From Cyanophora paradoxa CCMP329 (Eukaryota; Plantae; Glaucophyta), in assembly GCA_004431415.1 (NCBI GenBank), contig QPMI01000653.1, positions 1 to 31,062 of the forward strand: a stretch of DNA of 31,062 bases, given 5' to 3'. Shown piece by piece: positions 1,785-31,062 of this stretch. The stretch's first letter is position 1; each line of letters begins with the position of its first letter. A program made the position numbers and the translations under genes. The notes below the pieces were generated by a model. It was not told the DNA's origin. It saw only the letters and a list, made by a program, of their open reading frames with translations, and ran no database searches.

Positions 1785-2230
1785 AGATGGTGCGGCCGGC
1801 CCTGCTGACAGATAGCCCGCCTGGTCGATTCCGGCTACGGCGCCTGTACCCCCGACGGGCCACGAGCTCTCTGGTGGGACGAGGCGGGCGGCGGGGGGCG
1901 GGGAGAGCGGGGTACGGACGAACGAGCCCGCCGCTTATCGCCCGCCTGGTCGATTCCGCTACGGCGCCTGACCCTGGCGGACGCGCGAGCTCTCGGTGAG
2001 ACGCGGCGAGCGGCAGAGGGTTCGGGGAAGCGGGGGGTACGGACAAACCGAGCCCCGCCGCTTATGGCCGCCTGGTCGATTCCGGCTACGGCGCCTGTAC
2101 CCCTGGGCGGCCCGCGAGCACGTCGTGAGGCGAGGCGAGCGGCCAGAGGGTGCGGGGGAGCGGGGGTACGGACGGACCAGGCCGCCGCTTATGGCCCGCT
2201 GGTCGATTCCGGCTACGGCGCCTGTACCCT
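1785..2230 (-). repeat. Tandem array, type A units (~125 bp), 4 cores, reverse orientation
   Basis: GCCTGGTCGATTCCGGCTACGGCGCCTGTACCCC (some with 1-bp deletions) at ~1819, 1944, 2070 and 2198. Reverse complement of the units at 5017-6776 and 26899-27283. Confidence 0.95.
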
Positions 2231-2332
2231 GGCGGGTGCGCGAGCTCTTTGAGAGACGGGGGCGAGCGGTCGGAGGGTGCGGAAGCGCGCGAAGGGGTGG
2301 GTCGAGAGGAAAGGCAAACGACAGCGTTAGCA

Positions 2333-3490
2333 GGGGTACACGCACCGTAGCCGGAATCGACCAGGCCGCCCCTACTGCGAGCCAGCTGCTGCGATCCGTA
2401 CGGGCGCCGAGTGAGCGAGGGCGGGGGGGCGGGGGGGGCGCGTTGGAGGGTACACGCACCGTAGCCGGAATCGACCAGGCCGCCCTACTGCGAGCCAGCT
2501 GCGGCGGGCCGTGCGGGCCGCGAGTGAGCGAGGGCGGGGGCGCTCGAAGGGGGCGAGAGGCCTAAGGGGTACACACACGTAGCCGGAATCGACCAGGCCG
2601 CCCTACTGCGAGCCTGCTGCCGCGGGCCGTACGGGTCGTCGAGCGAGCGAGGGCGGAGGCGCACAAGGGGGGGCGAGGGCTAAGGGTACACACACCGTAG
2701 CCGGAATCGACCAGGCCGCCCCTGCTGCGAGCCAGCTGCGGCGGGCCGTGCGGGCCGCGAGTGAGCGAGGGCGGGGGCGCTCGAAGGGGGCGAGAGGCCT
2801 AAGGGTACACACACCGTAGCCGGAATCGACCAGGCCGCCCTACTGCGAGCCTGCTGCCGCGGGCCGTACGGGTCGTCGAGTGAGCAAGGGCGAGGCGCAC
2901 AAGGGGGGGCGAGGGGCCTAAGGGGTACACACACCGTAGCCGGAATCGACCAGGCCGCCCCTACTGCGAGCCAGCTGCGGCGGGCCGTACGGCCGCCGAG
3001 TGAGCGAGGGCGGGGGCGCTCGAAGGGGGCGAGAGGCCTAGGGGTACACACACCGTAGCCGGAATCGACCAGGCCGCCCTACTGCGAGCCTGCTGCCGCG
3101 GGCCGTACGGGCCGCCGAGTGAGCGAGGGCGGGGCGCTCGAGGGGGGGCGAGGGGGCCTAAGGGTACACACCGTAGGCGGAATCGACCAGGCCGCCCTAC
3201 TGCGAGCCAGCTGCGGCGGGCCGTACGGGCCGCCGAGTGAGCGAGGGCGGGGGGCGCTCGAAGGGGGCGAGAGGCCTAAGGGTACACACACCGTAGGCGG
3301 AATCGACCAGGCGCCTCTACTGCGAGCCAGCTGCCGCGGGCCGTGCGGGCCGCCGAATAAGCGAGGGGCGGGGCGCTCAAAGGGCGAGAGGCCTAAGGGG
3401 TACACACACCGTAGCCGGAATCGACCAGGCGGGCCCCTACTGCGGGCCAGCTGCCGCGGGCCGTGCGGGCCGCCGAAGGAGCAACGAGGG
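2333..3490 (+). repeat. Tandem array, type B units (~118 bp), 10 cores
   Basis: GGGGTACACACACCGTAGCCGGAATCGACCAGGC-CGCCCCTACTGCGAGCC at ~2333, 2448, 2566, 2684, 2803, 2922, 3040, 3161, 3280 and 3397. Confidence 0.95.
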
Positions 3491-5016
3491 CGGGGCGCGC
3501 GAGGGGCCGCGGAGCGGGCAGCGGGCGAGGAAAGGGGGCGGGGCTCGCTGCAGCCCGAAGAAGCGGACCGAGCGCGGTGCCGGCCGACTCGGTGATCGTC
3601 TTGCTCGCCGGACCGGTGCGCCCGCACTCCTCCCCGCGTAGCGCTTCGCGAGGGTGTGGCGGAGAAGCGCGCGGGTCCGCACGCTGCGCGCCGGCGCCGC
3701 ACGCGGCGGCCGCGGACCGATCGATATCGACGGCCGGAGGCGCGCAGGCGGAAAAGCGCGGAAAGTGCGCCTTGGGCTCCGGCTGCGTCTGCGCTACCGC
3801 CGAGCGCGGCGCCGTGCGCGCGAGCTCGGGTGCCAGCATGTGCGAATAGGGCACGCATACGTGAGCTTGTGGGCCGGAGAGGCATCGGAGGGCGCTGCGG
3901 ATCGATCGCTAGCCATGGCCATGGGATCTTCGACTCAGTGACTGCGCCGACCCGAGCACGAGCCGGGCGGGCGCCGACGCGATTTTCGAGCTCAACAGGA
4001 GCCAAGGACTGCGCCAGAGGGCACTCGCGCGACGCGGCGTGCTGTTGAAATTCGATGGTGCGATGTCGCACGATCGAAACGTTGCAAACTGGCCCCCCCC
4101 CCCCCGAAAGAGCTGCGCTTTGGGCCAGCGTGCGTGCACGCGCTCGCCGAGCTGCGGCGGCAGCTGCGGCACGCGGTGCGCGTGCTCGAGCCTCCAGGCT
4201 CCAGCCGCACGGCTGCGGCGAGTCTCTGGTACACGCATTTCACCGCCGGGCGGAAAAGCACGCTAGAGCCACAGCGATCCACGCACAGAGAGCAGCGGAC
4301 CCGAGCCGCGCTCGTGCGGGCGCTCGGACGCGCCCGAGCCGCGAGCCTCCTTCTGCTCTCCGAGAGATCTAGAGCCACGCCTCCGGCGGTTCCAGCTACC
4401 GTGCGGTTCATGCGCTCCCGTCGGTCGTAGCCTGCTCGGCGGCCGCGGCCCGCAGGCAACTTTCGATCCGCCGCGGCTGACGTGCGCATGCCTCTGTACA
4501 TGTCCCTCGCCCGGCCGCAGGGCGCCGACGCCGGATTAAGTTTTTGCGCGCCGCGAGCTCTTCCTGCGTTCAGTTCGAATCAAAGCGGCTCATGCCTACG
4601 CGCGCCGCGCGCCCGGCCGGGCCCGCCCGCCGGAGCCGGCCGGCGCTCAACCGGCCAGGCCTCGGCGCCGGGCGCGGCGCCCCGTCGCCCAGAGCGGATC
4701 GCCTGGTGCGCTTCGGGGCCGCCTGCTCGGGGGGCGGGACGCGCGGCAGCGGCCTGGCGAGGCCGGGCGCGGGACGTCGGTCGGCACGGGGAGCCGGCCG
4801 ATGCCCTGCGGCGGCGGCGGCGCAAGCGGCGGCGGGGCGTCCATCGCGAGGTTGAGCGCGGCCCGCCGGGCGCCGCGCCCGTGGCGGGCGAGAGAGGCCC
4901 CGCTTCGAGCGTCCCTCTGGATCCGCTTCCCCGCCAACGCCAAGCCCTCCGCAGCCGGCCCGCCGGGCGAGCCAAGAGCGCCCGGGGCCTCGTGTGGGGG
5001 TGCGCCCGAGCACGGC

Positions 5017-6776
5017 GGGCCTGGTCCGTCCGTACCCCCGCTCTCCCCGCCCCCGCCGCTCGCCGCGTCTCACCGAGGGCTCGCGGGCCCGCCCAGGGGT
5101 ACAGGCGCCGTAGCGGAATCGACCAGGTGGGCCATAGGCGCGGGGGCTGGTCCGTCCGTACCCCTCGCTTCCCCCGCACCCTCTGGCCGCTCGCCGCGTC
5201 TCACCGAGAGCTCGCGCGTCCGCCCAGGGGTACAGGCGCCGTAGCCGGAATCGACCAGGTGGGCCATAGGCGGCGGGGGCCTGGTCCGTCCGTACCCCCC
5301 GCTTCCCCCGCACCCTCTGGCCGCTCGCCGCGTCTCACCGAGAGCTCGCGCGTCCGCCCAGGGGTACAGGCGCCGTAGCCGGAATCGACCAGGCGGGCCA
5401 TAATCGGCGGACCCGGTCCGTCCGTGCCCTCTGCTCGCCCGCCCCCGCCGCTCGCCTCGTCCACCGACGTGCTCGCGGGCCACCCAGGGGTACAGGCGCC
5501 GTAGCCGGAATCGACCAGGCGGGCGATAAGCGGCGGCCCGGTCCGTCCGTACCCCGCTCCCCTGCACCCTCTGGCCGCTCGCCTCGTCTCACCGAGGGCT
5601 CGTGGGCCCGTCCAGGGTACAGGCGCCGTAGCCGGAATCGACCAGGCGGGCCATAACGGCGGGCCCGGTCCGTCCGTACCCCCGCTCGCCCCCACCCCCG
5701 CCGCTCGCCTCGTCTCACCGGCGTGCTTGCGGGCCGCCCAGGGGTACAGGCGCCGTAGCCGGAATCGACCAGGCGGGCCATAACCGGCGGGGCCGGTCCG
5801 TCCGTACCCTGCACCCTCTGGCCGCTCGCCTCGTCTCACCGAGAGCTCGCGAGCCCGCCCAGGGGTACAGGCGCCGTAGCCGGAATCGACCAGGCGGGCC
5901 ATAAGCGGCGGGCCTGGTCCGTCCGTACCCCCCGCTCTCCCCGCCCCCGCCGCTCGCCGCGTCTCACCGAGGGCTCGCGGGCCCGCCAGGGGTACAGGCC
6001 GCCGTAGCCGGAATCGACCAGGCGGGCGATAAGCGACGGGCCTGGTCCGTCCGTACCCCCCCGCTTCCCCCGCACCCTCTGCCGCTCGCCGCGTCTCACC
6101 AAGAGCCTCGCACCGCCCAGGGGTACAGGCGCCGTAGCCGGAATCGACCAGGCGGGCGATAAGCGGCGGGCCCGGTCCGTCCGTACCCCCGCTTCCCTGC
6201 ACCCTCTGGCCGCTCGCCTCGTCTCATCGAGAGCCGCGGTCCGCCCAGGGGTACAGGCGCCGTAGCGGAATCGACCAGGCGGGCGTTAAGCGGCGGGCCC
6301 GGTCCGTCCGTACCCCCGCTCCCTGCACCCTCTGGCGCTCGCCTCGTCTCACCGAGGGCTCGTGGGCCCGTCCAGGGGTACAGGCGCCGTAGCCGGAATC
6401 GACCAGGCGGGCCATAACCGGCGGGGCCCGGTCCGTCCGTACCCCGCTCGCCCCCACCCCCGCCGCTCGCCTCGTCTCACCGGCGTGCTTGCGGGCCTGC
6501 CCAGGGGTACAGGCGCCGTAGCCGGAATCGACCAGGCGGGCCATAACTGGCGGGCCCGGCGTCCGTACCCTGCACCTCTGGCGCTCGCCTCGTCTCACCG
6601 AGAGCTCGCGAGCCCGCCAGGGGTACAGGCGCCGTAGCCGGAATCGACCAGGCGGGCCATAAGCGGCGGGCCGGTCCGTCCGTACCCCCGCTTCTCCCCC
6701 GTCCCCGCCGCTCGCCTCGTCTCACCGAGAGCTCGCGGCCCCGCCCAGGGTACAGGCGCCGTAGCCGGAATCGACC
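5017..6776 (+). repeat. Tandem array, type A units (~127 bp), 14 cores
   Basis: GGGGTACAGGCGCCGTAGCCGGAATCGACCAGG at ~5096, 5227, 5361, 5487, 5615, 5741, 5862, 5989, 6120, 6247, 6375, 6504, 6620 and 6748. The inter-core sequences are homologous to each other. Confidence 0.97.
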
Positions 6777-6979
6777 GGGGGGTCAAAACCGGACGACTCT
6801 CGGCGGGCGCCGTTTCGCGGCGCCCACCGCGGGGCCCGCGCGCCGGCGTTGGGGCCCGCGGGCCATCGCCCACCGCCGGCCGCCGCCCCGCCCCGGCACG
6901 CGTCCTTCCCACCGTACCTCTCCCCTCTCCCCCGCCACCCCGTCTGCCGCTTTTGCCCATCCCGGCGGGCCCGATGGGG

Positions 6980-6989
6980 CATATATAGG
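6980..6989 (+). promoter_or_regulatory. TATA-like box CATATATAGG upstream of the 7069 gene
   Basis: Isolated AT island in very GC-rich DNA, ~88 bp before ATG 7069. Identical 10-mer at 11954-11963. Confidence 0.6.
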
Positions 6990-7068
6990 AGTCGCCGGCC
7001 CCCGATCCTCCCGACGAGACCGCAGGCCCCTTCTGCGGGGTCCTCCTCCTTCCCCCCTGCCTCCGGCG

Positions 7069-9403
7069 ATGGCGTCGCAGCCGGCGTCGGGGGCCAGGTG
7101 ACGAGCCCGCGGGGCGCGGCGGGCGGCGCGTCCGGCTGCCCGCCCCTCGACTCGCGGCCGGCCAAGGTCAGCCTCCCCGCGTTCATCAGCCTGGGGCGGG
7201 ACCCGCTCTCTCCTGCCGCCCGCCTGCGCCGCTGCAAGTCGGAGCGCATCCTCCCCCGATCCTCCTCTCCTGCGCCGCCGCCCGCCTCCTCGCCAAGACC
7301 GGCGCATCGTCCGTCAACGAGGCCCTGGACGCCCACCCGCGCCCCGCCCTCGACGACCTCAAGTTCAACTCGACCGGCTCGTTCGTCTGCCTCAGCTGCG
7401 CCCTCACCCTCCTCTCCGTCAGCGCCGAGGGCGGCGCCTCGCCGCCCCTCTTCACCTGCCCCAGCTGCGGCGACCCCCACCCGGCCGCCTCGGGCCTCGT
7501 CTGCAGCTCCCGCATCGACGCCCTCTTTTCCTTTCTCGCCTACATCGACGACGCCGCCTTTGCCGCCTCGTGGATCTCCGGCGACCTCTGCCTCCGCACG
7601 GCGCTCACGTACGCCCTCGAGCGCTTCCAGGCGGCCGCCGCCCAGGCCCGCGCCCGCCGCCGCGCCGCGGCGGCCCGCCCCGGCCCCCGCGGCCCCCGCC
7701 GGGGCGGGCCGAGCTCGGGCTCCGGCTCTGGCCCCGAGCCGCCGCCCGTCCGACGGATCCGCGCCGCCGCCCAGCCGCCGGCGCCGGCGGCCGCCCCCTG
7801 GCCCGGGGAGCCGGCCGCGGGCGCCAAGGCCCAGGCGGCAAGAAGCGCAAGGAAAGGGCGCCGCCTTGGGCCGGGCCGGCCGCCGAGGAGGAGGGGGAGG
7901 AGAAGGAGGAGGAGGGGCCGGCCACCGGCCCTCGCGATCGCGCGCCAAGCGCGCCGCGACGTCGACCAAGGGCCGGCGCGGGGCGAGTCGGCGGCCGAGC
8001 AGGAAGAGGGGAGGACGGCGCCGAGGAGCGGGCGCTGGAGCGGCGCAAGACGCTGCGCCCGCCCAAGCCGGCGAGCTCCCCCGACCCGAGGCGGCGTCGG
8101 CGTCGGCCTCGGCGCAGGGCGCCGGCCCGGGTCCGGCTCGGGCGCCGGCCCTCGAAGCCGGCGCGGCGGGCGGCGCGGAGCAAGTGGGGCGCCGGGCGCG
8201 ACGCCGCAAGGAGTGGGAGTCGGACAAGCTCATCCGCGTCCTCTACAACGCGTACACGCGCCCAAGGACGAGGACGCGCGCTCCGAGTCGGAGGGGGGCA
8301 GCTCGCCGGGAGCGGCGGCGGCGGCGGCGGCAGCAGCGGCGGCGGCGGCAAGGGCAAGGCAAGGGCAAGCGGCGGCGGCCCCCTCGCCATCGAGGCCGGG
8401 CCCGAGGGCGGCGGGGCGGCGGCGGCGGCTCGGGCAGCGAGGAGGACGGCTCGCGCGCCGGCTCGCCGGACCCGCGGGGCAAGGAGCTCGCGGAGCGCTG
8501 GCGCAAGGCCCTCGCCGAGGCGGAGCGGGCGAGGGCGGCGCGGACGACGCCGACGAGCTCGCCGAGGGCCCGCCGGGGCGGGGGCGAGGGCGAGGGCGGC
8601 TCGACCCAGAGTCGCTGGAGGCCTACGACTTTGGGCTCGAGCGGGATCGACCCGGGGCTCATCGGGCGCCAGATCGACGCCAGCCCCGAGGCCGCGCGGC
8701 CCTCCTGAACCGCATCGAAGAGGCGGGGCGGGAGCGGATCCGCTGCATCATGCTCATCGCCTGCTCCGTCCTCGCCGTCCACCAGGCCTACACGGAGCGC
8801 TACGGCCGCAACCGCCGCCTCTGGGGCGCCTACCGCGCCGAGCACCTCTGCGCAAAGTACGACCACATCCTCCAGGCGGCCGGCTTTCGCCTCGAGGTCA
8901 GCGCCCAAAAGGTGAGTCGCTTCGAATTCCCCTGCGGGAGGAGGGGCGGGGGCGGGCCCCTAGCGCTAGCTGCAAGCACGCGTGCCCGGCCCGGCGTGCT
9001 TTCAACGTCGCTCACCGGAGGCTCGCGCAGTCCGAGATCTACAACGACCTCGCGCGCTGGGAGAGACGCTCACGAGGTTCCCTGGCCTGGCGCGCGTCTG
9101 CGGGAGCGGCATATCGGTCGTCGACTTTGTCAGCTGCCTCCCGCTCCTGAAGGGCTGCACGAAAGAGGGGGCGGACCAGATCCGGAGCGGCTCGCGGAAG
9201 AGGTGCAGCGCGCCAAGGGCTTTGTCTTTGACGGCTCGGTGCTGGAGCTTCGGGAGGCCGGCGAGAGCGACGGGACGGGGACGGGGACGAGCAGAGCGAG
9301 GCGTCGGGCGAGGAAGGGCCGCCGAAGGCGCCGGCGAGGCCGGCGCCAAAGGCGACTGACCGGCAACGAAAATAGCACACGTTATACGCTGTTTAGAGTT
9401 TAG
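7069..9403 (+). CDS. Hypothetical protein with CxxC...CxxC zinc ribbon, low-complexity linker and helical C-terminal domain (frameshifted, at least one intron near 8912)
   Basis: High-GC3 frame not shown in the ORF track reads ILLSCAAARLLAKTG...FVCLSCALTLL...LFTCPSCGDPHP...FSFLAYIDD...ALERF (~7259-7640). It continues with EWESDKLIRVLYNAYT and LLNRIEEAGRERIRCIMLIACSVLAVHQAYTERYG...SAQK|gtgag. The 3' end (9359 or 9403) is uncertain. Confidence 0.55.
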
Positions 9404-9794: not shown

Positions 9795-10876
9795 TCAGGC
9801 GCTCTCGGTGTCGGCCGCCGTGTCTCCCTTCAAGCGTCGCGCAAGATCCGTGTCTGCAGGGCTGTCCAAATTCAAGGATCAGGACAGTCGCGATTAGCAT
9901 CAATCCGAGCGTGACATTATAATTAAAGAAGCAGCCTGGCAGAGGGAGCTTAAGCCATGCTTATAATTATAGTTATAATCAAGGGACGGAAGAGGCACTG
10001 CAGCATTTGTAATCAAAAATAGGGCAAGACCTTACGCGTGCGCACCCGACCGTGACTCGCTTGCGGTGCTTGGCCGCGAGGACACCACCCTCGAACCAGC
10101 GAATGATGTGCGCCTCGGCGGCCTCGCGAATGGCTTGGATAGTGTCCTGCAAGACATGAAATACTAATCAGCCAGCTATTCGCACCCCCCCGCGCCCGGC
10201 ACTGCGGCACGGGCGCGCACCTTTGTGAACCGAAAGTTAACAGATTGTTCACGAAGACCGGCCTCCACGTCTTCCTTGATCATCGCGGCCGTGAGCTCGC
10301 GCACCTGCGCACGTGCACGCGCCGCACAGCAGGGCACAGGGCTCGGGCGGCAGAGGATAGTTTCAAGTTTTGAAGGGCCCCCACACGTACCAGGCGGCCG
10401 AACGGGGCCAGCGGAATGAGGGCATTGTAGGTCTTCTGGTACCTGAACAGGAGCGGGGTTTCATTCAGAATTTATTTGTCACAGATCTAAATAGATTTAA
10501 ACAAGAGTGAAATAAAAAACATTGAACGTACTTCACAATTTCGCGCTTTGCCACCGTCCCAGGGCGATGGCTGCGCGAGCGAGCGATTCTCACGTGCCGG
10601 GACTTTCTCTTCAAAATAAAACGTAGGGAAGAGAGCAGGCCGACCGGAACGGCTTTCTCACTCCGCCCTCGCCCACAGCCTTTTTCCGCGCGGCTTTGGT
10701 CTTGAGGCCGCTGGCGCCGGAGCTCTTGAATGCCTTTCGCGGGCCTTGTTTCCGGTGCCACGCTTGGCAGTTTGCTGCAAAATATAATTACAATGAACGA
10801 ACTCGAAAGAACTAAGAATCGCAGATATGAATTCAGCGGGCTTTCATGATCATTTTCCCACCTTGATGCGGGGCAT
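9795..10876 (-). CDS. Divergent histone H3 variant (7 exons, ~162 aa; H3/CenH3-like histone fold)
   Basis: Exons 10876-10862, 10774-10645 (one C missing in GCCC), 10570-10532, 10442-10391, 10304-10221, 10146-10046, 9861-9795; all six introns GT-AG. Translation: MPRIKQTAKRGTGNKA(P)RKAFKSSGASGLKTKAARKKAVGEGGVRKPFRHRPGTVAKREIVKYQKTYNALIPLAPFGRLVRELTAAMIKEDVEAGLREQSVNFRFTKDTIQAIREAAEAHIIRWFEGGVLAAKHRKRVTVGPADTDLARRLKGDTAADTESA*. Collinear with canonical H3 from K4 to G132. Confidence 0.93.
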
Positions 10877-11980: not shown

Positions 11981-12034
11981 GGTCCACGGGAGCGAGCGGA
12001 GAGGCGCAGGGGGCGGGGCGGAGGGCGGGGCGGG

Positions 12035-14763: not shown

Positions 14764-14795
<32 letters not shown>

Positions 14796-15768: not shown

Positions 15769-15800
<32 letters not shown>

Positions 15801-19169: not shown

Positions 19170-20755
19170 ATGCCGGGCCGCGCGATCGAGGGCTCCGGCG
19201 GCGCCGGAGCGGTGGTGGCGGCGGCTCGCTCCCCGGCCGTCAAAAAGGCAAAGCAGGGCGGGCGCGGCGGCGGCGGCGGCGGCGGTGGAGGCGGAGGCGG
19301 CGGCGGCGGGCCGACCGAGGGACCCGCCGAGGACGCCGGCGGGGCGCCCGCCCCGCAGCAGCAGCAGCAGGAGCGCGAGCACGACGGGGGCTCCGAGGGG
19401 CGCCCCGACGCCGAGCCTGGCGCCGCGGCCGCCGCGCCGCCGGCGCCCCCCGGCAAGCCCAAGCGCCCCCGCGGTGCGTTCCCCTCTCTCGCCGCCCCGG
19501 CCAACTCTCATCCCGCCCGCGCCGCGCAGCCCGCGGGACGGCCGGCGGCACCCCCCCCGCCCTCTCGGGGAAGCGCGCCAAGCTCTTTGCCGACGGCACC
19601 GGTGCGTCCCGTACCCCCCCTCCCCCTTTCCCTTTTTTCCCTCCCAGGGCCGCCCGCGCCGATGGGCGTCCCGGGGCGCAGGTCGCGGCGCCGAGGGGGG
19701 CGCCAGAGGCGCCGCGGAAGAGGCGCACGCCGCCGGCTTGGCGGGCGAGCGCTCGGACGGCTCCGGCCATGACGGCGGCAGCGAGGGGGACGGCAGCCAG
19801 CGCGAGGTGGGGCCGGACCCCCCCTCCCCCCTCCCTCCCCCGCCCGGTTCGTCCCCTCTGACCGGTCTGCGCGCAGGGCCCCGGCTCGCACGACGAAGAA
19901 GACGACGACGAAGGCAACGACGAGCGGGGCGACGAGGACGGGGGCGGCAGCGACGCCGACGGGGCGACGGACCGCGCCCACGGGCGGGGCGGGGCCGGGG
20001 ACCGGCCCCTCAGCGCCGAGCTGCGCCGCGCGGCCGGCCTCCCGCCGGCGGTGACGCGGCGGGAGCGGGCGATCCGGGCCCGCTGGGCGCGCGCGGCGGC
20101 GCACCGCCGGGCGGCGGCGGCGCGGGAGGCGCTGGCGGAGCGGCTGCAGTCGACGCTGCGCCCGCGGGCCGAGCGGCTCGAGGCGCGCGCCGCCGAGCTG
20201 GGGCCCGAGGCGGCGGCCGCCGAGGCGGCCCACGTGCGGATGGTGGCGGAGCGGGCGGAGCTGCAGCTCGCCGCCTGCAAGGGCCGCCCGGGGCTCGAGC
20301 CCTCGATGCGGGCGGCGGCGGAGCGGGCGCGGCGCCAGCTCGAGACCGAGGAGCGGCGCGCCGCCCGCGCGCGATCCGCCAAGGCCGCCGCCGTCGCCGC
20401 GCGGCGCCGCGTCGAGGACGCCGAGGAGGCGCTGGAGGAGGACCCGAGCCCGGAGCCGATCTTCACCCCACCGGCCGCCGGCGCCTCCAGCGCCATCTAC
20501 TGGGTCGCCCTCGCCGCCGCCCTCGCCCTCGGCGGCCCCGCCGCCGCCGACCCCGACGCCCAGGACCGCGCCGCCGCCGAGGCGGCCGCCGAGGCTGCCG
20601 CCGAGGCCGCCGCCGCCGCCGCCGTCGTCGACTCGTTCTCTTCTTCGTCTCCTCCGGAGGCGAAGACGGCCGCTCCGGCGCCGGCCCCGGAGCCCGGCCC
20701 CGCCCCCGAGGCTCCTGCCCACGAGGCCGAGGGCGCCGCCCCTGCAGACGCCTAA
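19170..20755 (+). CDS. Multi-exon low-complexity / Ala-Glu-Arg coiled-coil hypothetical protein
   Basis: ATG 19170 follows a 5'UTR-like intron (GTGCGC ~19075 to CGCAG 19161). Several GTGCGT...CAG introns. Last exon is GC3-rich (RERAIRARWARAAAHRR...SAIYWVALAAALALG...) and ends at TAA 20755. Confidence 0.5.
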
Positions 20756-20761
20756 TCGAGA

Positions 20762-20766
20762 CCCCC

Positions 20767-20816: not shown

Positions 20817-20821
<5 letters not shown>

Positions 20822-21083
20822 CTCCAACGACGAACGAAGCGCCTTCAGGACCCCCCGAGACGTTACGGGGTAGATGCAGGCGCGGGGTGGAGGGGGTGGG
20901 AGGGGGGGAGGGGGGAAGAATGCCAAGGGATTCCCGGGCGGCGTCGGGAATCCCGGGTCGAGCCGTCGAGACCGCGGGGTCGATAAAAGGGGTTGCGCGG
21001 TGCCATCTCACAACACGAGCGTGCACTATCGCCCGAGAAAAGGCCGCCCACCCCCACCAATTCTCGTACCGCTAGAGATACCG

Positions 21084-22067
21084 ATGGCCACGGAGACGAC
21101 GCACATGGCGGCGGCGGCGGCGGCGCCCCTTTCCGAGCCGGCGGCGCCCAGGTTGATCGCCGACCTCCCCGACGAGATCGTTCGCATGGTAACGAAGCGG
21201 CTCGGGCCCTGGGATGCCAAGCGCACCCTGGGGTCTACGAACCGCCGCTTTCGCGACTTGGTCAAAAACGACGACGGCGAGTGGGCGGCCTTGTGCAAGA
21301 CGCAGCTCGGGATCGTGGTTCCCGAAGACGCTCCGCGGGACGGCCTACAACGTCTACGCCGGCTTTTTCGCGACGCGCTGCCGCTTGTGCTTTGAGCGCG
21401 GCTTCTGGAAGCCCAGCGAGGAGCCGATGGTGATGGACCCGCTCTTGAACATGCGCCTCTGCTCCACCGACGCCCGCTGCGATCGTACCCCGATGAGCAG
21501 CATCTACACCATTTCTTATGAATCGAAGAACAGCCACGACAATTACGGGCTATACGGAAACACCATCCCGCACCTAGTCGTCGACGCGGCCGGTCGAACG
21601 AATTACGCCGCCCTCGTCAGGGAGCGGAGCGCCGCCGCGGCCTCCCCGCCCGCCCAGGCCTCCTCTCCATGGCGGAGATCGTCAAGCGCTACCACCTCGT
21701 CCCCGCCGCAATACGAAGCACCGTCCGCGCGGGGCCCTCGCCGCGGCCGGCTACGACCCGGAGACGCTGGAGGAGCGCTTCGACCCCGCCGCCGTCCGTG
21801 CCTGGCTGGTCGATGAGGCCGGCGCCGGCATCCCCGATCCAGAGGGGCGCGCACGAAATCTCGAGAAGGCGGCAGAGTACCGCAAGCGCCGCCGCGGACA
21901 GTTCGAGCAGCACACTGCGCCGGCTGCGCATATGCATGCCACCGCTCCGGCTGCGCATGCCACCGCGCCGGCTGCGCCTGCCGCGGGGCGGCCGGGGTGG
22001 CGTCATGATCAGCTATATGAACTATATATACGACGTCGATCTGGGAGAATTCGTTACCGCTCCTTGA
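21084..22067 (+). CDS. F-box protein with CxxC...C zinc-binding region, paralog 1 (intronless, frameshifted; 3' end uncertain)
   Basis: IADLPDEIVRMVTKRLGPWDAKRTLGSTNRRFRDLV...W..LC is an F-box signature. Followed by RCRLCF...DPLLNMRLC...C and NYGLYGNTIPHLVVDAAG, shared with paralog 2. Confidence 0.75.
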
Positions 22068-22627
22068 TTGAAAAGAGGTTAGCGGCAGTTGTCAAAGTGC
22101 ACGTGTAGAATACGAATAGCTAAAAACCTAGCTATAGAAATGATTATGATATTCGATAGCTATACCGATCGATATCATGAATCGAACGAGATTTGTTTGG
22201 AACAGCAAAGTGACCGTCAGTCCATGTGCGAAGCGATAATTATAATGTTATAATCAAATCAGTTAACGTTCCAAGGACATAAAACTGAGCTTTAAGTTAC
22301 ATGAGTTACATGCGATGTATATGTGTGCGTAGGAAATTTAAAATCGCTCGCGCATGTTGCGCGCGAACATGAATTCGAGACCTCTCGTGGAGCGGCCAAG
22401 GGTGGAAATTAAAGGGCGCGGACCCGAAGGGGCGCGGTGTCACGTGCAAGTGCACAGGGTACGCTCCTTCCGGCATGCGCACCCCGGCCCCTCGGTCGGG
22501 ATTCCCGTTCACGAAAAAAACGGTGGCCGACAAAAGGATCGCGCGGCGCCATTTCGTCACTCGGGCGCGCCGACCCAAAGAAACGACGTCGACACCGGTA
22601 CCGCACCCGATCCATCCAAAGATCTAG

Positions 22628-23634
22628 ATGACCCTGACGACGATGCCGACCCGTGCACTTGAGCTCGAGCCCGAATTTGTGGAGGCGGTGGCGCATGGAG
22701 GCCGCCCGGGCGCGTCGCCGGCGCCCGTGGCCGAGGCCGAGGCCGACATAAATCGCGAGATCGAGCTCACGATCGTGCCTGCCGCGCCAAAGTCGACGTC
22801 GGTGTCGTTTCTAGACCTCCCCGACGAGATCATCGCGAAAAGATCGCCACCATGCTGGGCGCCAAGGGCGCCAACATGTACCTGGGATCCCTCTGCCGCC
22901 ACTTCCGCACCATCGTCAAGGAGCACGACCAGGCGTGGGCGCAGCTGTGCACGACGGAATTCGAGCTGGGCGTCACCAACATGGAGAGGGCCCCGCGCGG
23001 GGGGCCCCACGCCGCGTACTTTGCGTTTGCCGCCGTGCGCTGCAAGGCGTGCTTCTACGGCCACCGCGACTGGAGCCCCGCGGCCGACACGCCGTTTATC
23101 GACCCGATCACAAAGTGGCCCGTCTGCGCCGACTGCGCCGCTCCCTACACGAGCACCGCGAACGGCGTGGCCATTGGTCACGTGATCAGCGCCATCTCTG
23201 GCGAGTCCCGCGAGGCCAGCGTCAAGTACGGCCTCTACGGAACCACCATCCCGCACCTCGCCGTCGACGCGGCCGCTTTACGAACTATGCCGCCATCGTC
23301 AGGGAGCGGGAGCGCCGCCGCGGCCTCCCGCCCGCCCGGCCTCCTCTCCATGGCGGAATCGTCAAGCGCTACCGCCTCGTCCCCGGTCGCTGTCTGCATC
23401 ACCGCCCGCGCGGGCCTCCCCGTGGCCGGCTACGACCCGGAGACGCTGGGGAGCGCTTCGACCCGCGACGTCCGTGGCTGGCTGGTTGAGAAGGCCGAAA
23501 TCCCCGATCCGGAGAGGCGTGTGCGCGATCTCGAGAAAAAGGCCGAGCGGCGCAAGCGCAAGCGACAGCAGGAGCCCGACGCCGAGCGCTCCGCCGCGCC
23601 GGGCGCGTCCGTAGAGGCCCACGCCGAGATCTAG
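22628..23634 (+). CDS. F-box protein with CxxC...CxxC zinc finger, paralog 2 (intronless, frameshifted)
   Basis: FLDLPDEIIAK(fs)IATMLG...LGSLCRHFRTIV...WAQLC is an F-box signature. Followed by RCKACF...DPITKWPVCADC, KYGLYGTTIPHLAVDAA, GYDPETL and IPDPE, shared with paralog 1. Confidence 0.78.
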
Positions 23635-24587
23635 TATATCGTGGTTGATTAGATATATATATATATATATAGGAAGATTGATTGCGATTGCGAGAGGTAT
23701 GCGTTGCGCGGTTAACGTATACGTATACGCGTAGGTAAATCTCGCGCTCGTGCTCGTGGGAGATCATGGATATCGATATCGATCGGAAATGGATATTTCG
23801 CACGCTTACGTATAATGCTCGTAAACATGTTTGCAATTTGTGGCTCCACGATGCAATCATTGAATGATTGTTGAATAATCACTGAGATAAAACATCGCCT
23901 TCCGATCCGCCACGTGCACGGCGCCTGCAAACTACGGCCTGGCCGGAAGCCTCTGGGGGGGATTACGTGCGCTCCGCGGCCGGCTGACCCGACGTTAACG
24001 CTAGCTATAGCTGGCGTGTGTCGAATTCATTATAGTTCTTGGAAGCTTAAACTGTAAGATGGTCGACGTCGGTGCGATCGGCGAAGAAGCAGTACTAGCG
24101 AATACGTAAACGTGCGATGCTTAAGCATGTACTACGTATACGGTATCATAGCATGCATTCGCATTGGTGCGTTCGTTTGCAATTCGAGTTCATTGAAAAA
24201 ACTACGACGCCGACTCTGCAAGTTTGAAATTTGCGGCAACAGTTTTCTACGCCGTGCTGCACACGCGTACATACGTGCACATGTGTGCACAACTCGCTGA
24301 ATGTCAAATGATTGCAACGTGCGACCGTCCGGACGCAGTCTGTTTCATTCCCTCCTGTCCAGCCTGTACGTGTACGTGTATCCTTGCCGACGGCGACGGG
24401 GCGTACACGTACGGGATTCAGAAATCTTTTTCGGTCAGCGATCGGGAATCCCGCATGAAATTCCGCAGTGCCACGGTGCAGCGAGGAGGAGGGCTATAAA
24501 AGAGATCCACCTCATGATCAGCCTCGCAGACCACATCGGCAGTTCCGGATCCCTTTCGCAAAACAAAGCGGTTCAAACTCGCGAAAC

Positions 24588-24960
24588 ATGTCCAACGCGT
24601 TCGTCGAAGCCAACGTTACCGTCAACGGCGACGATGCTGTCACGTCGGTTGCAATCGGCGAAGGAAGCGGGCGCGGTGGCGACGATGACGTGCACGTGGG
24701 AAGAAATCGTGAGGCTCGCTGACCGCTTTATCGAGGACGACGACCGCATCCGCGCCGAGTCCGAGGCGAGGTCACACCCGTCGCCAACGCGCCTACGGCA
24801 ACACGGACATAGTTTGGCTCGGGAGCCTCTCGCCCGAGGAGATTCGAGCTGCGGCCGGCGTCGGTGACGTGGGAGAGATCGTGAGCTCGGGAGCGGTTCA
24901 TCGAGGACGACAATCGCATCCGCGCCGAGTGCGAGGCCCGGGCGATTGCTAGGTCGCGAT
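24588..24960 (+). CDS. Small hypothetical protein or pseudogene with a duplicated ~25-aa acidic helical motif (frameshifted)
   Basis: TATAAAA at 24495-24501 and GGGAATCCC at 24444-24452 upstream. GC island in AT-rich flanks. TWEEIVRLADRFIEDDDRIRAESEAR (~24694-24770) recurs as ...ERFIEDDNRIRAECEAR (~24867-24940). Confidence 0.4.
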
Positions 24961-25544
24961 TAATATTGATCAAGCTTATAAATAGCTTGGATACCGTAGC
25001 ACGTGTACGTATACAGTTCTGCGTCAGAAGCGATACATAATATACAAGCTCACTGATCATGATCATGCCATGATGCATATGGATGATGCGAATTCGACTG
25101 CACATACATATGCATGCATTTACATCATTACACACGTAAATATACGAGCTACTAAACGTATTATAGCTAAAACTAATGTAATACGCATAATGTAAGCACG
25201 TATATATTATACCGCGCGGCGCGCAGCTGAATAGAGTAACGTATAGTACACGTACTTGGTAGCGCGTGCCAATTCCGGATCCAAGTACGGCCTAAGCTTG
25301 CTGCCCGTTTTTGCTCTTCGCATCGCCTCTAGATTTCCTCTCATATATAATCACCCTCTGAATCTCACACACAGCGTGGGTGTACGTAGCTATAACGTTC
25401 AATGGCTCACACGGGTACGTATACGGGTCGGTTTATTTCGCGTAACAAACCGTATATATATACGTAGTACGTATACATGCGGGTCTGAAGAGAAAATGCG
25501 AGGCCCCACGGTACGGCCAGGGGGTAGAAGGGAGCGGGAAAGGA

Positions 25545-26190
25545 TCACTGTAGCTGGTCACGAGCGCTAGCGGGGGCGGGGGCGGGGGCGGCCGCGAGGG
25601 CTGCGTCGAGCTCGGTAGCGAGCTCTTTGTAGATCTTTTGCTTGCCCCAACACATCAGCTCCTGGCAGAGATCCGCCTCTCGGTAGAGCCGGAACGCGAG
25701 CTCCGCCTTGGCGTACCCGCCGTTGTTCGAACGGGGTCCGCGGTACCGGCTGCCTTGGCCTTTCTCGCGGTATTCGTTCACGTAGTCATCCCACATTTCC
25801 CGCTCAAGGCGGGGGAAGCGCTCCACATCCGTCCATGTCCCATCACTGAAGATCTTTTCTTTGAAGCCAGACCGTGCGCCTGTAACGCCGACGTATTGCT
25901 CGATACGGGCGCGCTTGAGGGCTGTGTCGATGGCATCTACGGCTCTGGCGCGCTTCGCGCCGATTATGGCGTCGCAGTCGAGGTTCACGACTTCACGGGC
26001 TCCGTCGGCGTAGACCTGAAGGCCCTCCTGGATCTCCTCGGAGCTGCAATTCCTCCAAAGGCTTAGAGCGGAAAATCCGGTAGCGGGCTTCGAGGGGCCG
26101 TTTGGCGCCGGCGGCGACGAGCTTTGGCTCGTCGTCCTTGAACACGGTCTTCGCGCGCTTGATCAGGCTCTTCACTTTGCCGGCGTCCAT
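25545..26190 (-). CDS. Hypothetical protein, ~215 aa (intronless; ORFs 25993-26190 and 25545-25988 joined across frameshifts)
   Basis: Globular-looking composition (MDAGKVKSLIKRAKTVFKDDEPKL...; ...FSDGTWTDVERFPRLEREMWDDYVNEY...). Minus-strand TATAAA at 26306-26301 and two GGGATTCCC motifs upstream. Confidence 0.6.
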
Positions 26191-26559
26191 GGTCGATCGC
26201 GGGGGCGGTCTAGGTCTGGGCTGGCGTAAGCTTTTGGGTGCGCGGGCGAGACCGCGAGTGCGAATGACGATCGATGCCGACCGGAGCGGACGCGAACCCC
26301 TTTATAGACCCGCGATTCCCTTGGGGATCCGGGGGCTTGGGGGATTCCCGGTTGGGATTCCCGGCCCGACGGACCCCGCCGCGTCCCAACCCCCCCCGCC
26401 CCCCCCCCCCCCCCCCCCTCGATCCTCTGCGTTCACATGAAGCCCAGCCCTCGCGGTGAAAAAAGCGCGAGACCGCGTCGCGCCTCGCCGAGCCTGTGGC
26501 GAGCTGGCCGGCGGCCGCCCGCCGCTCTGGCAGATGCCACGCCCGAGCGGGCCCGTTCA

Positions 26560-26812
26560 GGGGTACCCCCTCGCGCACCCCCGGCCTCGCTCACCGGCGG
26601 CGAGCACCCCGTACGGCTCGCTGCATCTGGCTCGCAGTAGGGGCGGCCTGGTCGATTCCGGCTACGGCGTGTGTACCCCTCAATCGCGCCCTCTCCGATT
26701 CTCGTACGCCCCTCGCGCTCGCCCTCGCTCGCCCTGCGGCCCGTTCGGTTCGCCGCAGCTGGTGCGCAGTAGGGGCGGCCTGGTCGATTCCGGCTACGGC
26801 GTGTGTACCCCT
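26560..26812 (-). repeat. Type B units, reverse orientation, 2 cores
   Basis: CGCAGTAGGGGCG-GCCTGGTCGATTCCGGCTACGGCGTGTGTACCCC, with cores at 26646-26679 and 26778-26811. Confidence 0.93.
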
Positions 26813-26898
26813 GCTAACGCTGCCCTTTTCCCTCCCTCTCCAACTACCCCTGGCCCTCCCGGGTCCCGCATCCTCTCAGCGAGGACCCGCAGGACGTC

Positions 26899-27283
26899 GG
26901 GGGTACAGGCGCCGTAGCCGGAATCGACCAGGCGGGCGATAAGCGGCGGGGCTCGGTTCGGTCGTACCCCCGCTCCCCCCGCCCCCCGCCGCGCCCTCGC
27001 CTCGTCTCACCGCGCGCGAGCTCGCGGGTCCGCCCAGGGGTACAGGCGCCGTAGCCGGAATCGACCAGGCGGGCCATAAGCGGCGGGGCTCGGTTCGGTC
27101 GTACCCCCTGCTCCCCCCGCCCCCCGCTGCGCCCTCGCCCCGTCTCACCGCGAGCCCGCGCGTCCGCCCAGGGGTACAGGCGCCGTAGCCGGAATCGACC
27201 AGGCGGGCCATAAGCGGCGGGGCTCGGTTCGGCCGTACCCCCGCCCCCCCCCGACCCCGCCCGCTCGCCCCGTCTCACCGAGG
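26899..27283 (+). repeat. Type A units, 3 cores (~135 bp period)
   Basis: GGGGTACAGGCGCCGTAGCCGGAATCGACCAGGCGGG at ~26899, 27037 and 27171. Confidence 0.95.
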
Positions 27284-27335: not shown

Positions 27336-28014
27336 TCACTGATCGTGAGCGGCCGCGGGGGCGGGCCGGGGGCGGGGGCCCGAGTGCAGCTCGGGGGGAA
27401 CGAGCCACGCGGCCGAGCGGTAGCGATCGCGAAACGCCTGCGGCGCCCAGGCGGGGAGCGCCGCCGCCCCCTCGTCGAGGCGCCGCCCGTAGCCCTGCGG
27501 GTCCGCCCGCCACCGCGCCGCGTGCTCGCCGGCGAGAAAAGTGATGCCGGCGCCCGGGGCGGCGCGGCAGAGGGGGCAGCGAAAGTCGGCGGGGGGCAGC
27601 GAGGCGAGGCAGTGGAGGCAGAAGACGTGGTTGCAGGCGAGGCGGACGGGCCGCGCGTGCGGCTCCAGGCAGACCGCGCACGGGTCCCTCTCGTCGGCGC
27701 CGGCCGCGCCGGCCGCGGCCGGCAGCTCGGCGCTCGACGCGTTCCGCATGCACCAGCAGGTGAGGGCGGCGAGGTGGCCGAGGGAGACGAAGCGGGCGAG
27801 GGCGGCGGGGTCCGTGCGCGGGTCGCCCCCCGCCGGCGCCTCGACGACCTCGGTCTCGACCCAGGACTTGCCGCGCGCCACGGGCAGAGGCACGCGGATG
27901 GAGCCGCGCGCCGCGTCGTACTCGTGCAGACCGTGCCCGCTCCGCGCGCGAGCGGGTCCCGCTCCCCGCCGAAGCGCTGGGGTACGGGGTGGCCCGGTGC
28001 CCGCGGGCGCTCAT
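27336..28014 (-). CDS. RING-HC (C3HC4) finger protein, putative E3 ubiquitin ligase
   Basis: CAVCLEPHARPVRLACNHVFCLHCLASLPPADFRCPLCR is a canonical C3HC4 RING. Likely ATG at 28014 (needs one frameshift), below a minus-strand ATAAAA at 28120-28115. Confidence 0.85.
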
Positions 28015-28385
28015 GGGGTAGGGAGAACCCTGCGTCGACCGAGTTCGAGCGGACGGGGTACTGCGGTCGCGCACCCCTCGCTCTTCCTCGTCTACCCCCC
28101 GCCCAGGGGCGCCCTTTTATGGTCGGACGCGGCGGGCGTGCGGGGCGGGGACGGGGGCGGGGAGGGGAGGGGTTCGGAGCACCTCGCCGGGGTACGCGGC
28201 GGGCGGGGAGCCGCGCCCCGCCGGCTCGGGTCGCGCGGGGAGCGGCACCGGCCGCGGAGGGCGGGGGTACGGCCGGCCGCGGCGCGGGATTCCCGTTCGT
28301 TTCCGCCAAGAAAAGGGGCCCGCCCCGCGGGAGGAGGGGCGTTGATCGCCATTCCTCGCCTGCGCAGGGAAAAAGCGAGAACGGA

Positions 28386-31062
28386 ATGGAACTTGCCGAG
28401 GGGCCGCTCTGCATCGCCGGGCCGAGGGGCGCCGCGGGGCCCGTCCCCGCGCCGAAGCGCGCCAGGGACGGGGCGGCGGCGCCGGCGGGCGTCGCCCCCC
28501 CCGCGCGCAGCCCTCGGTGCCGCCCGCCTCGGACGTCGACCCTGCCAGCGCCGCCCTCTTTGTCAAGATCGGGCGCCCGGGGCGCGCAGGACGCCATCTA
28601 CCGCACCTCGTGGCGGCGGTCCCCTCGACGCCTCGCCGGCGTGCAGGGCGCCCCGTCGGCGTCCCGCCCCCGCAACGTCGCCCAAGTCTGCCTCCAGCCG
28701 GCCGTCCGGCTGCGCGACGGACGCGCCGCCAAGCTCGCCTTTCTGGGCGCCTTTGACCTGGACGTGCACGTCGAGGTGCCGGCCGAGGTCTGCGAGGGGG
28801 CGGTGGGCGACGCGCAGCGGGCCAGTGCAAGAAAGAGTACCTCTGCGGCGTCCTGGCCGAGGCGCGCACGCTGGGCGAGTACTGCCGCCGCCTCCCCGAC
28901 GTGGCCCGCGTCGCCCGCCTCGCCACGACCTCGCCGCCGCCTGCGAGGCGTCCGGCCTGCGCGCCCTCGTCGTCTTCAGCGGGCTCAAGGGGTTCCACGT
29001 CGTCGTGATGGAGCGCGAGCTGATCGCCCGCTCCGAGGCGCCCGCCTCTACGACGCCGAGGACCTGCGCCAGTGGGAGCTCAGGCGCGCCCGCGCCCGCG
29101 CCCGCTTCCCGGGCGACTGGAAGCGGGCCTCGCGGTCGGCCGGCACGCGCGCCGTGCCCGGCATGGTCGACAAGAGGCGGTCCTCGTGGCGCGGCGCCGA
29201 CGCCCCTCGCGGCCGTCGTGAGCCCTGGATGGAGCGCAAGCTCGGGCCCGCGTCACCGGCGCCCTGCTCGAGGCGGGGGCCGTGGACGTGAGCACTGGAA
29301 CCCGAACTGCGGGATGCGCGAGGACACGCACTACCACGGCTGGACGCTGCGCTACCCGGTGGCGATCGCCGACCGGACCGCCCTCGTCGATCCCGCCCGC
29401 GGCGACGCCGTCGACCTCTGCACGGCGCGGGCCGACCCCCGCCATCGTCGCCTGGAACCGCGACTTTCTACGCCTGGCTCCGCTCCGCCCTCGCCGAGGC
29501 CCTTCTTCCTCGACCTCCCGGCCCTCCCGCGCCCGCCGGCGCCGGCGCCGACCTCGCCCGCCGGCCGCCCCAAGCGAGAGGCAGAGGGCGCCGCGAAGAG
29601 GGCGGTCGGCCGCGCGGCCGCGGGCCCAAGCCCCCGCCGCGGCGCGCCGGGCGCGACCGACCCGGCCCCCCGCCGCGGCGCCGCGGTCGATCCGAGCGGG
29701 CCCGAGGTGCCGCCGGACCGCCTCCGCCTCGCCCGCGCCGTCTACCCCGCCGAGAGCGGCCGGGAGTGGGAGCGCCAGGGCGGCGAGGTCGAGGCCTACG
29801 TCTCGCGCCCCGCCGGCGGGCCTGCCTCCACGGGCGCGTCCACAGCAGCCAGAACACGCGCCTCGCCGTCGCCCCGTTTGGGGCGTGGGCGTGCTGGCGG
29901 GCTCCGCCCACTGCTTCAGCCTCGCGTGCGCCGAGCGGCCGCTGCGGGGCGCCCTCGCCTTTGCCGAGGGGCTCCCCGCCGCCGCCGCCCGAGGCCGCCG
30001 AGGCCCTCGGCCGCTGGCTCCCGCTCCTCTCCGAGGCGGCCAACGCCGCGATCGCCGCCGCCGCGCCGCCCGCGAGCTCCCGCCCCTCGTGCTCCCGGAC
30101 GCGGCGGCGGCGCCGTACCCGGCCCGCGCCGACCTGGGCACCGACACCGTCGAGTACGCGTCAAGGCCCCCTGCGCCCTCTGCGGCGACCGCCGCGGCCT
30201 CGTGCGCGTCGACGCCCTCGAGGGGACGGCCCGCGCCCACGCTGCGACGCCTGCGAGGAGGCCAAGGCGGCGGAGGCGGCGGCCGCCGCCGGCGCCCGGC
30301 TCGGGCCCGGGCCCGGGCCCAAAGCGGCGCCCGAGGTCCGCCTGGGGCGCGCCTGGACCTCGTCGATCTCGGCGTGCAGCGGGCCGTGCACCGCGGCCAC
30401 CGTCGGCCCGCCGTCGCCGCCGGCCTCCTCCCCGCGTCGACGGGCCTGCTGGGGGCGACGGAGCCGCGGGCGACCAGCCGCCCATGTCGGCGGCGCGCCA
30501 GAAGTTCGTGGCGGGGCTGGCGCGCACCTGAGGAGCGGCTGGCGGCCCCCGCCGGCTCCCCCGACGGCCGACCCCCTGGAGGTGGGCGCCCGAGCAGGCG
30601 GCCTCTGGGCCGCGCGTCCGCTCCGAGCCTCGGGAGGCCGCTGGCGCCGCCGGCGGGGCGGCCCGACCTGGAGGCGGCGTGGCTGGGGATCGACGACGAC
30701 GCCGGGGGCGAGGGCCGAACCGGCGCTACGTCGACGGGGCGCGCATCTCCCGCGAGCTCGAGGGCCCCGAGGGGCAGGCGCGCACCCTCTTCCTGCGGGG
30801 GGGCATGGGGACGGCAAGACGCGCGCCTGCGTCTCGATCTCCCGCGCGATCGTGGCCGACCCGGCCGCTTCGGCGTCCGCTTCGCCGAGGGGCAGCGGCT
30901 CCATCCTCTACCTCGTCGCGGGGCGGCTGCACGCGCCCGAGATTCAGCGGGACCCCGAGTGGGCGACGGTGGCGCGGTGGGTCTCGTACGCGCGTGCGGG
31001 ACGGGGCGCCCGACGCCGCCGCGCTCCTCAGCACCGTCGAGTCGGTCCGGCGCTTCGACGGG
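28386..31062 (+). CDS. AEP primase-polymerase + Zn fingers + UL9/origin-binding-protein-like SF2 helicase (heavily frameshifted, runs off window end)
   Basis: AEP motif I AFDLDV (28752-28763) and motif II VVFSGLKGFHVVV (28978-28998). PrimPol/UL52-type Zn motif CLHGRVHSSQN...HCFSLAC (~29823-29929) and a second CALC...CDAC. Helicase: RYVD...TLFLRGGMGT(G)KT Walker A (~30781-30822), SILYLVAGR, WVSY, LLSTVESVRRF. Confidence 0.8.

Follow-up and report, generated by a model that had tools for sequence, protein, structure and literature searches.

What kind of genetic entity occupies positions 1-31,062 of contig QPMI01000653.1 of the glaucophyte alga Cyanophora paradoxa CCMP329 (assembly GCA_004431415.1)? 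This whole stretch, referred to here as the window, carries a tyrosine recombinase (YR) fused to an Ulp1-type protease, the 5′ half of a primase-helicase gene, a histone H3 gene, F-box and RING genes and large repeat arrays. The reading favored here is a multi-copy nuclear DNA element that would copy itself via its own primase-helicase, enter and leave chromosomes via its YR, and exist as a circle or a head-to-tail array; this reading is given a probability of roughly 0.5. In general terms, the window likely belongs to a virus-like element with nuclear self-replication, possibly in circular form. The EukProt YR gene model tig00021536_g22234 equals the window at 1538 of its 1543 residues, the gaps all being of intron size, and the window thus corresponds to contig tig00021536.

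A multi-copy unit with a recombinase and a predicted primase-helicase

Three genes of the window have copies on other contigs.

12035..16941, + strand: multi-exon fusion gene with an N-terminal domain, an Ulp1/CE-clan protease, a YR and a C-terminal domain (match to tig00021536_g22234)
~13228-13760, + strand: Ulp1/CE-clan protease domain of the fusion
14256-15679, + strand: YR core-binding and catalytic domains
~16490-16810, + strand: conserved C-terminal domain of the fusion
21084..22067, + strand: F-box gene 1 (Pfam E 1.5e-4; copies tig00021535_g22210 and tig00020509_g9762)
28386..31062, + strand: 5′ half of the primase-helicase gene (905 of 1811 residues), cut by the window end (assigned by motifs; a full-length model tiles the window)

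F-box gene 1 and the primase-helicase gene recur together on two further contigs, as models g22210 and g22215 on tig00021535 and g9762 and g9756 on tig00020509, five and six gene numbers apart, as in the window. The primase and F-box models of tig00021535 differ from the window only by small indels, and in its YR model (g22231, cut at residue 901) a few residues next to indels are mismatched. On tig00020509, the copies contain real substitutions, with identities of 95% and 98% to those of tig00021535. On tig00021535, the order is F-box, primase, 15 gene numbers and the cut YR gene, versus YR, F-box and the cut primase gene in the window. Because the gene order is circularly permuted and indels account for almost all differences between the shared genes, the window copy is likely part of a circle or a head-to-tail array, as judged from gene numbers and contig ends rather than from reads. 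By the same gene numbers, the unit would comprise roughly 24 gene models, perhaps 45-65 kb. Single-copy host genes, which an earlier note on this DNA had named as the outcome that would speak against a mobile element, were not found: F-box and primase genes are linked on three contigs, and the YR family occurs on at least six contigs other than the window. The sequences thereby support one multi-copy unit. The genome is reported to be probably haploid (PMC6704402), so the copies are paralogs rather than alleles, and allelic haplotigs were rejected as an explanation.

The YR family beyond the window includes the near-copy on tig00021535 and five older fusions of the N-terminal domain, Ulp1 and YR (43-61% identical) on five contigs. 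A phmmer search with the YR stretch 14876-15679 against 1.84 billion representatives returned 44 matches at E ≤ 0.001, the top six of which are EukProt models of C. paradoxa. In a tree built from 29 of 46 rows (17 were left out for domain length or lack of a match), the five older Cyanophora fusions fall on one side of a branch with support of 93/93, below the starred threshold. The nearest relatives of the window YR outside Cyanophora form an unnamed, ~30% identical sister clade of Prymnesium polylepis and metagenome contigs. No near-length YR homologs were found, IMG/VR held no relative of the YR, and PHROGs yielded only an integrase at E 0.09, for one family member (P0002).

Both enzymatic domains of the fusion, proposed in the earlier note from sequence alone, are confirmed. 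The YR catalytic domain (14876-15679) gives first ESM Atlas matches of 0.97, and PF00589, the YR domain, annotates 67%, 63% and 29% of members in the three top-ranking Atlas clusters. The family profile matches an archaeal XerC-like structure in the PDB (E 1e-4), and the structure model (predicted local distance difference test, pLDDT, 83) resembles integrase folds. Its best fold matches are giant-virus proteins, several of them algal; the best viral one is a Pyramimonas orientalis virus protein (E 6.5e-4, the sole match below 0.001), and PDB fold matches comprise integrases and Xer/Cre, none below 0.001. The protease domain keeps the catalytic H, D, Q and C residues and matches the PDB by profile at E 9e-7 and Pfam C48 at E 0.11. 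The catalytic residues of YR and protease are retained in most paralogs. The N-terminal domain (12035-12900) is conserved among those Cyanophora paralogs whose models extend to it and has no profile match; we take it to resemble two Bro-N-type repeats.

Within the YR catalytic domain, positions 15380-15433 form a probable 54-nt GC-AG intron in frame; the gene model reads through it, and the paralogs lack these residues. An intron of the same gene contains a GA microsatellite at 14773-14821. In the model of one YR paralog, tig00021043_g17614 (P0005), a tandem-repeat region is attached upstream and a WD40 gene downstream; its surroundings are possibly the edge of an element beside a host gene.

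The primase-helicase gene lacks introns in its visible part. A full-length model from another contig (P0062, 1811 residues) tiles the window with gaps of only 1-3 nt from indels, and the 1811-residue frame is intact in two copies. Archaeo-eukaryotic primase (AEP)-type motifs lie at residues 125, 201 and 312, a Cys/His zinc-finger-like block at 486-521, and motifs of the superfamily 2 (SF2) helicase type follow in order at 817-1118. The letters of the helicase motifs presumably resemble those of UL9. The AEP primase and the UL9-type origin-binding helicase that had been predicted here are thus weakly confirmed, by motifs and sub-threshold profile matches: the motif order agrees with the prediction, whereas the profile matches fall below their cut-offs. 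A PDB sequence search with P0062 returned no match, and no relative of the primase was found in IMG/VR.

Repeat arrays, accessory genes and the proposed mechanism

The repeats and promoter motifs of the window are distributed as follows.

1817..2282, - strand: type-1 repeat array, ~127-bp unit, 4 cores
2334..3476, + strand: type-2 repeat array, ~119-bp unit, 10 cores, back to back with the preceding type-1 array
5013..6779, + strand: type-1 repeat array, 14 cores
18494..18676, - strand: two degenerate cores (5-6 differences) upstream of the gene at 19170
20927..26362, no strand: six GGGATTCCC sites, 122-164 nt upstream of F-box gene 1, F-box gene 2, the open reading frame (ORF) at 24588 or the ORF at 26190
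26608..27280, no strand: mirror module with 2 type-2 cores (-) back to back with 3 type-1 cores (+)
27979..28294, no strand: four GGGGTAC sites and one GGGATTCCC site at the divergent RING/primase-helicase promoter

A 32-bp repeat core is present in 35 copies in the window and in none of 10 shuffles. The core occurs in both unit types and, rather than recurring across the whole window as the earlier note had stated, is confined to four clusters (1820-3429, 5097-6779, 18494-18676 and 26647-27203). Most type-1 units contain GGGGTAC, the end of the core, and its reverse complement ~60 bp apart. Outside the arrays, GGGGTAC is found 11 times versus an expected 1.6±1.3, with a maximum of 7 in 200 shuffles. 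The motif GGGATTCCC, chosen by eye, has seven sites versus 0.42 expected, and all seven lie 92-164 nt upstream of one of five starts. Given this distribution of the core, GGGGTAC and GGGATTCCC, the arrays are read as iterated protein-binding sites; they look like a putative origin and/or enhancer. The shared cis motifs appear to tie the arrays, the cargo genes and the primase together. The core has no match in IMG/VR or the JGI metagenomes.

The mirror module is an inverted copy of the 1817-3476 junction on the opposite strand (78% identity over 742 nt). The two inverted modules, at 1817 and 26608, were considered as terminal repeats and rejected, given that the primase and RING genes, which travel with the F-box genes located between the modules, are themselves outside; with the unit continuing as it does on tig00021535, the modules would be internal. 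At 18750-18940, just upstream of the gene at 19170, two additional stretches resemble the core but are very degenerate, beyond the limit of 6 differences.

Four accessory genes bear on how the element might function.

9795..10876, - strand: divergent histone H3 gene with several introns, in an island of 55% GC (Pfam, PDB alignments)
17146..17556, + strand: stand-alone GIY-YIG nuclease gene (Pfam E 2e-8; exact 136-residue model in the protein collection)
22628..23634, + strand: F-box-like gene 2, a paralog of gene 1 (82% DNA identity over 360 nt), without a Pfam F-box match
27336..28014, - strand: C3HC4 RING gene, divergent from the primase-helicase gene (Pfam E 6e-7)

The derived H3 is confirmed by Pfam Histone (E 2.4e-5) and by alignment of its C-terminal helix to H3 in the PDB (E 8e-4), and the F-box and RING domains by the Pfam matches listed, in agreement with the earlier note. 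The PDB H3 alignment shows K27 retained in the H3 tail, with K in place of S28 and R in place of K36. K4 is presumably kept and position 9 presumably R by the exon model and our numbering; the 3′ end of the gene and this R rest on a manually built exon model. The nuclease had been proposed as an SLX1-like branch-cutting enzyme; its GIY-YIG domain holds, and its match is a generic GIY-YIG one rather than one to SLX1.

The following enzymatic steps are all inferred from gene content and motifs. The primase-helicase or another element protein would bind the iterated GGGGTAC-containing core, open the back-to-back type-1/type-2 junction and prime synthesis, with elongation by a host polymerase (no PolB is seen in the window). 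GGGGTAC sites at the promoter of the primase-helicase gene itself might mediate autoregulation. The YR would excise or integrate the element or resolve multimers, and intermediates of replication or recombination would be substrates of the GIY-YIG nuclease. The fused Ulp1-type protease and the RING and F-box proteins may remove or redirect the SUMO or ubiquitin marks that silence foreign DNA, and an H3 variant without K36 and probably without K9 may help to keep the element out of heterochromatin.

Known systems and rival readings

Several observations weigh against a self-copying, mobile element. No replication, excision or circular junction was observed. The AEP assignment has Pfam matches to LigD_Prim-Pol (E 0.01) and DNA_primase_S (E 0.04), both below cut-off, and NCBIfam CyRepA1 matches the primase-helicase at E 0.013 and 0.0011, far below cut-off. 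The helicase stretch alone has no Pfam match and none to Herpes_ori_bp, and its single-sequence structure model reaches a pLDDT of 38 and retrieved no match in a fold search. In word-based searches, the 95% copy was the sole primase-helicase paralog to emerge, which leaves any link of the five older YR copies to a replicase conjectural. At 63 YR loci of the sister clade on metagenome contigs, most below 7 kb, no relative of the primase-helicase or of other window genes was found; among 45 long ORFs taken from 11 of the longest loci, matches were to pogo DDE, AAA, RING and ClpP, and neither to a capsid nor to a primase. The core is not the palindrome that had been described (z +0.68, with 1 of 8 stretches folding better than shuffles at z below -2), so a palindromic core was rejected, and the palindromic origins typical of herpesviruses and baculoviruses have no counterpart here. 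As to raised read depth as a sign of multiplication, sequencing run X1 gives a hint in favor, its 8 long pieces being 4.0-8.4 times deeper than unrelated contigs in that run (15 background rows; a hint only), whereas in run X11 depth is uneven, at 0.6-7.3 times (14 background rows), and tracks GC, and depth does not equal copy number.

The element works like the YR/AEP-helicase module of polinton-like viruses (PLVs; Polisuviricotina), with which it shares a YR beside an AEP-helicase fusion, a GIY-YIG nuclease and an endogenous, multi-copy state in a protist (10.64898/2026.10.13.758929; PMC12220804), although its AEP and helicase matches are weak. AEP-SF2 fusions are described as a sizable minority of polisuvirus replicases, YR correlates with AEP/PolA (10.64898/2026.10.13.758929), and Prim-S2H is reported in 20 PLVs, including PLVs of Rhodomonas (PMC12220804). 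Tandem integration and capsid-free AEP modules are also mentioned for PLVs, one in EVE_QPMI01_83, which has the same whole-genome shotgun prefix as this genome. Unlike PLVs, the element shows no jelly-roll capsid or A32 ATPase in 31 kb, fuses Ulp1 to its YR, carries its own H3, F-box and RING genes and large internal repeat arrays, and is likely larger. It also fails the intronless trait of PLVs, with a multi-exon YR model, introns skipped in RNA-like contigs and introns in H3. Further PLV traits are a length of 15-40 kb and terminal inverted repeats. An AEP fused to a UL9-like SF2 helicase is reported in Yaraviridae (SF2_hel), mimivirus R8, African swine fever virus pF1055L and ostreid herpesvirus 1; mriyaviruses likewise have an AEP and a UL9-related SF2 helicase but no PolB, and nuclear replication is predicted for them (10.1101/2024.02.29.582850). 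The motif order of the window gene fits this Mriyaviricetes trait (CyRepA1 E 0.001-0.013; no Herpes_ori_bp match), but the window has a YR and introns, and no HUH endonuclease, major capsid protein (MCP) or viral late transcription factor (VLTF) was found in it by Pfam.

CryptonF and CryptonS of oomycetes combine a YR with a C48/Ulp1 peptidase, and a circular intermediate has been proposed for them (PMC3212892). The element has the same pair of domains and exceeds a Crypton by carrying a replicase; the available text of PMC3212892 describes no replicase, histone or arrays for Cryptons. A small size without a replication gene, also a Crypton trait, does not fit the window, in which F-box and primase-helicase genes recur together and share a contig with a YR gene in two assemblies of the unit; terminal direct repeats of 4-6 bp are a further Crypton trait. 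The earlier proposal of an undescribed integrative replicon was sound as to a multi-copy unit (three linked contigs and the YR family) and overstated as to novelty, in that YR with AEP-SF2 is known in PLVs and YR with Ulp1 in Cryptons. In the literature searched (subscription journals and preprint supplements lay outside it), no description of the element turned up, nor of an intron-bearing Ulp1-YR fusion combined with an H3 of its own and iterated arrays inside the unit.

Mirusviruses, including the episome-plus-integrant Soporavirales, share introns, a histone, a C3HC4 RING, a nuclear lifestyle and possibly an episome beside an integrated copy (PMC12768974); the word 'integrase' is absent from the main text of that paper. 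Cyanophora does not figure in the main text of PMC10827195, and the idea of a mirusvirus already known from Cyanophora was discarded. The introns, histone and RING of the element are common mirusvirus traits and not diagnostic, and no HK97 capsid or terminase is seen in the window by Pfam. The unit size proposed above is much smaller than that of typical mirusviruses. Starship elements of fungi are large YR-mobilized cargo elements without a capsid. The YR gene of the present element is, in contrast, internal rather than first, and the element has its own replicase and repeat arrays; YR models P0001-P0005 and P0065 have no match to the DUF3435 'captain'.

A tentative alternative is an endogenous coated virus (polinton-like, mriyavirus-like or small mirusvirus-like), in which capsid and packaging genes would lie among the up to ~12 tig00021535 models outside the window and replication would be the same, with virions in addition. 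The YR and AEP-helicase are a common pairing in polisuviruses (10.64898/2026.10.13.758929), 366 PLV-type MCP genes are listed for C. paradoxa (PMC10120064 supplement), Mriyaviricetes-related regions are reported in a glaucophyte assembly (10.1101/2025.04.19.649669), mirusviruses are rich in introns with histones and RING genes (PMC12768974), and the giant-virus fold matches of the YR agree with such a virus. Against it, none of the six-frame segments scanned with Pfam outside the arrays (285 of 289) matched a capsid, A32 ATPase, terminase or HUH, nor were VLTF2/3, the two MCPs, HK97 capsid or portal detected in the window, although up to ~12 gene models of the unit lie outside the window and Pfam misses many PLV capsids; moreover, described endogenous PLVs are 15-30 kb and intronless (PMC10120064), and the IMG/VR scans gave no relative. 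Rather doubtful is the bolder counterpart, a capsid-less integrating nuclear plasmid of ~45-65 kb that would have iterated origins, an AEP-SF2 replicase, a YR switching it between circle and chromosome, and an H3 without K9 and K36 plus an integrase-fused deSUMOylase against silencing, and that would have diversified into at least six lineages within a glaucophyte.

It is improbable that the window is an immobile patchwork, in which a Crypton-like YR-Ulp1 transposon, a stray primase-helicase and duplicated host genes were multiplied by segmental or tandem duplication and the arrays are satellite DNA. The YR-Ulp1 pair is a Crypton trait (PMC3212892), the genes have high GC and introns, the fall to 53-63% GC in two blocks suggests separate origins, each of the 14 top DNA runs contains 73-90% of the region's words, which inherited DNA would be expected to show, and 34.7 Mb of duplicated features are reported in the assembly (PMC6704402). 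However, the low-GC cargo and the primase gene have promoter motifs in common, the array motif recurs at the primase promoter, and retained catalytic residues in most YR and protease paralogs and the two intact primase-helicase frames argue against it. Most improbable is that the circular or multi-copy state is an artefact of a long-read assembler that assembled one locus twice: tig00021535 and tig00021536 are numbered consecutively, nearly all differences between them are indels, and the window is error-rich, but an overlap at both ends with the order permuted calls for a circle or a tandem, the tig00020509 copy has real substitutions, and five diverged YR paralogs exist.

The self-copying nuclear element favored here would be of interest because natural nuclear plasmids are rare in eukaryotes and because it bears on the open question of how PLVs and capsid-less giant elements are linked. 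The capsid-less plasmid, if true, would represent a eukaryotic counterpart of the bacterial integrative element and a new category. The alga that carries it is available in culture, has been sequenced and stands at the base of the plant lineage. The element looks intact and at least two of its genes are spliced, so direct tests can decide between circle and tandem, measure copy number and inducibility, and look for virions. An element-borne H3 without silencing-mark lysines, if true, would provide a new route for selfish DNA to avoid host silencing; genes of viral origin in C. paradoxa, with giant endogenous viral elements, are reported to be enriched for methylation (PMC12344493). If the element is episomal, its origin and replicase are a possible starting point for a glaucophyte vector. 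Six of the eight contig names of interest were looked up, and none occurs among the supplement rows listed for PMC10120064; likewise, none of six was found in the available PMC12344493 supplement.

Remaining genes, sequence quality and transcription

The window contains five further genes or ORFs.

1..1587, + strand: gene with its 5′ end cut by the window edge, GT-AG intron-like stretches and no Pfam match
7069..9360, + strand: gene with CxxC pairs and an intron at ~8912-9030 (Pfam zf-Tbcl_FmdE E 9e-4, below cut-off)
19170..20755, + strand: low-complexity Ala/Arg/Glu-rich gene without a Pfam match
24588..24960, + strand: short ORF with an internal duplication, end approximate
25545..26190, - strand: ORF without a family match

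Profile searches found no family for four further ORFs and the gene cut at the left edge, and an exact look-up of 10 window ORFs in the protein collection left 9 without a match. The gene at 1..1587, which lies outside the coordinates of the earlier note, is probably part of the unit, as judged from gene numbering on tig00021535.

Read comparisons cover window positions 6800-20700. Eight long pieces from run X1 in this region have no substitutions, and the 12 listed single-letter insertions, beyond which 69 more entries exist, are all present in both DNA runs. Because these missing letters occur in both runs and the X1 pieces lack substitutions, the frameshifts in the window are assembly errors, and a pseudogenized relic was rejected as an explanation. 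The 14 DNA runs that share 73-90% of the words of 9000-18000 come from 14 studies and have one organism label. Substitutions absent from X1 are common to runs X11, X15 and X16, so at least two sequence types exist.

In X15 and X16, which are RNA-like as judged from intron skipping, contigs join 8909 to 9029 and thereby skip the intron at ~8912-9030; the same runs also shorten the 12523-12739 gap in the YR gene. Since two RNA-like runs skip these introns, the gene at 7069..9360 and the YR gene are transcribed and spliced, in the variant type.

Two low-GC blocks (9001-11000 and 22001-26000) have 53-63% GC versus 73-83% elsewhere, and observed/expected CpG reaches 1.4-1.6 in the block 22001-26000. 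The blocks hold H3 and the F-box gene 2/ORF cargo and are possibly later acquisitions. Sister-clade YRs P0021, P0031, P0035 and P0017 have weak PHD, Chromo, BAH and RING matches, all below cut-off, which suggest an unnamed family of chromatin-targeted YR transposons, with one member from the haptophyte P. polylepis. On one metagenome contig, a pogo-type DDE transposase (L003:12909-15032) lies 1.8 kb from a sister-clade YR. Long C runs at 20762-20816 and 26390-26418 lie beside the F-box block and the mirror module, respectively. TATA-like boxes are observed in very GC-rich surroundings at 6982, 11956, 24495 and 26306, ~80-115 nt upstream of four gene starts.

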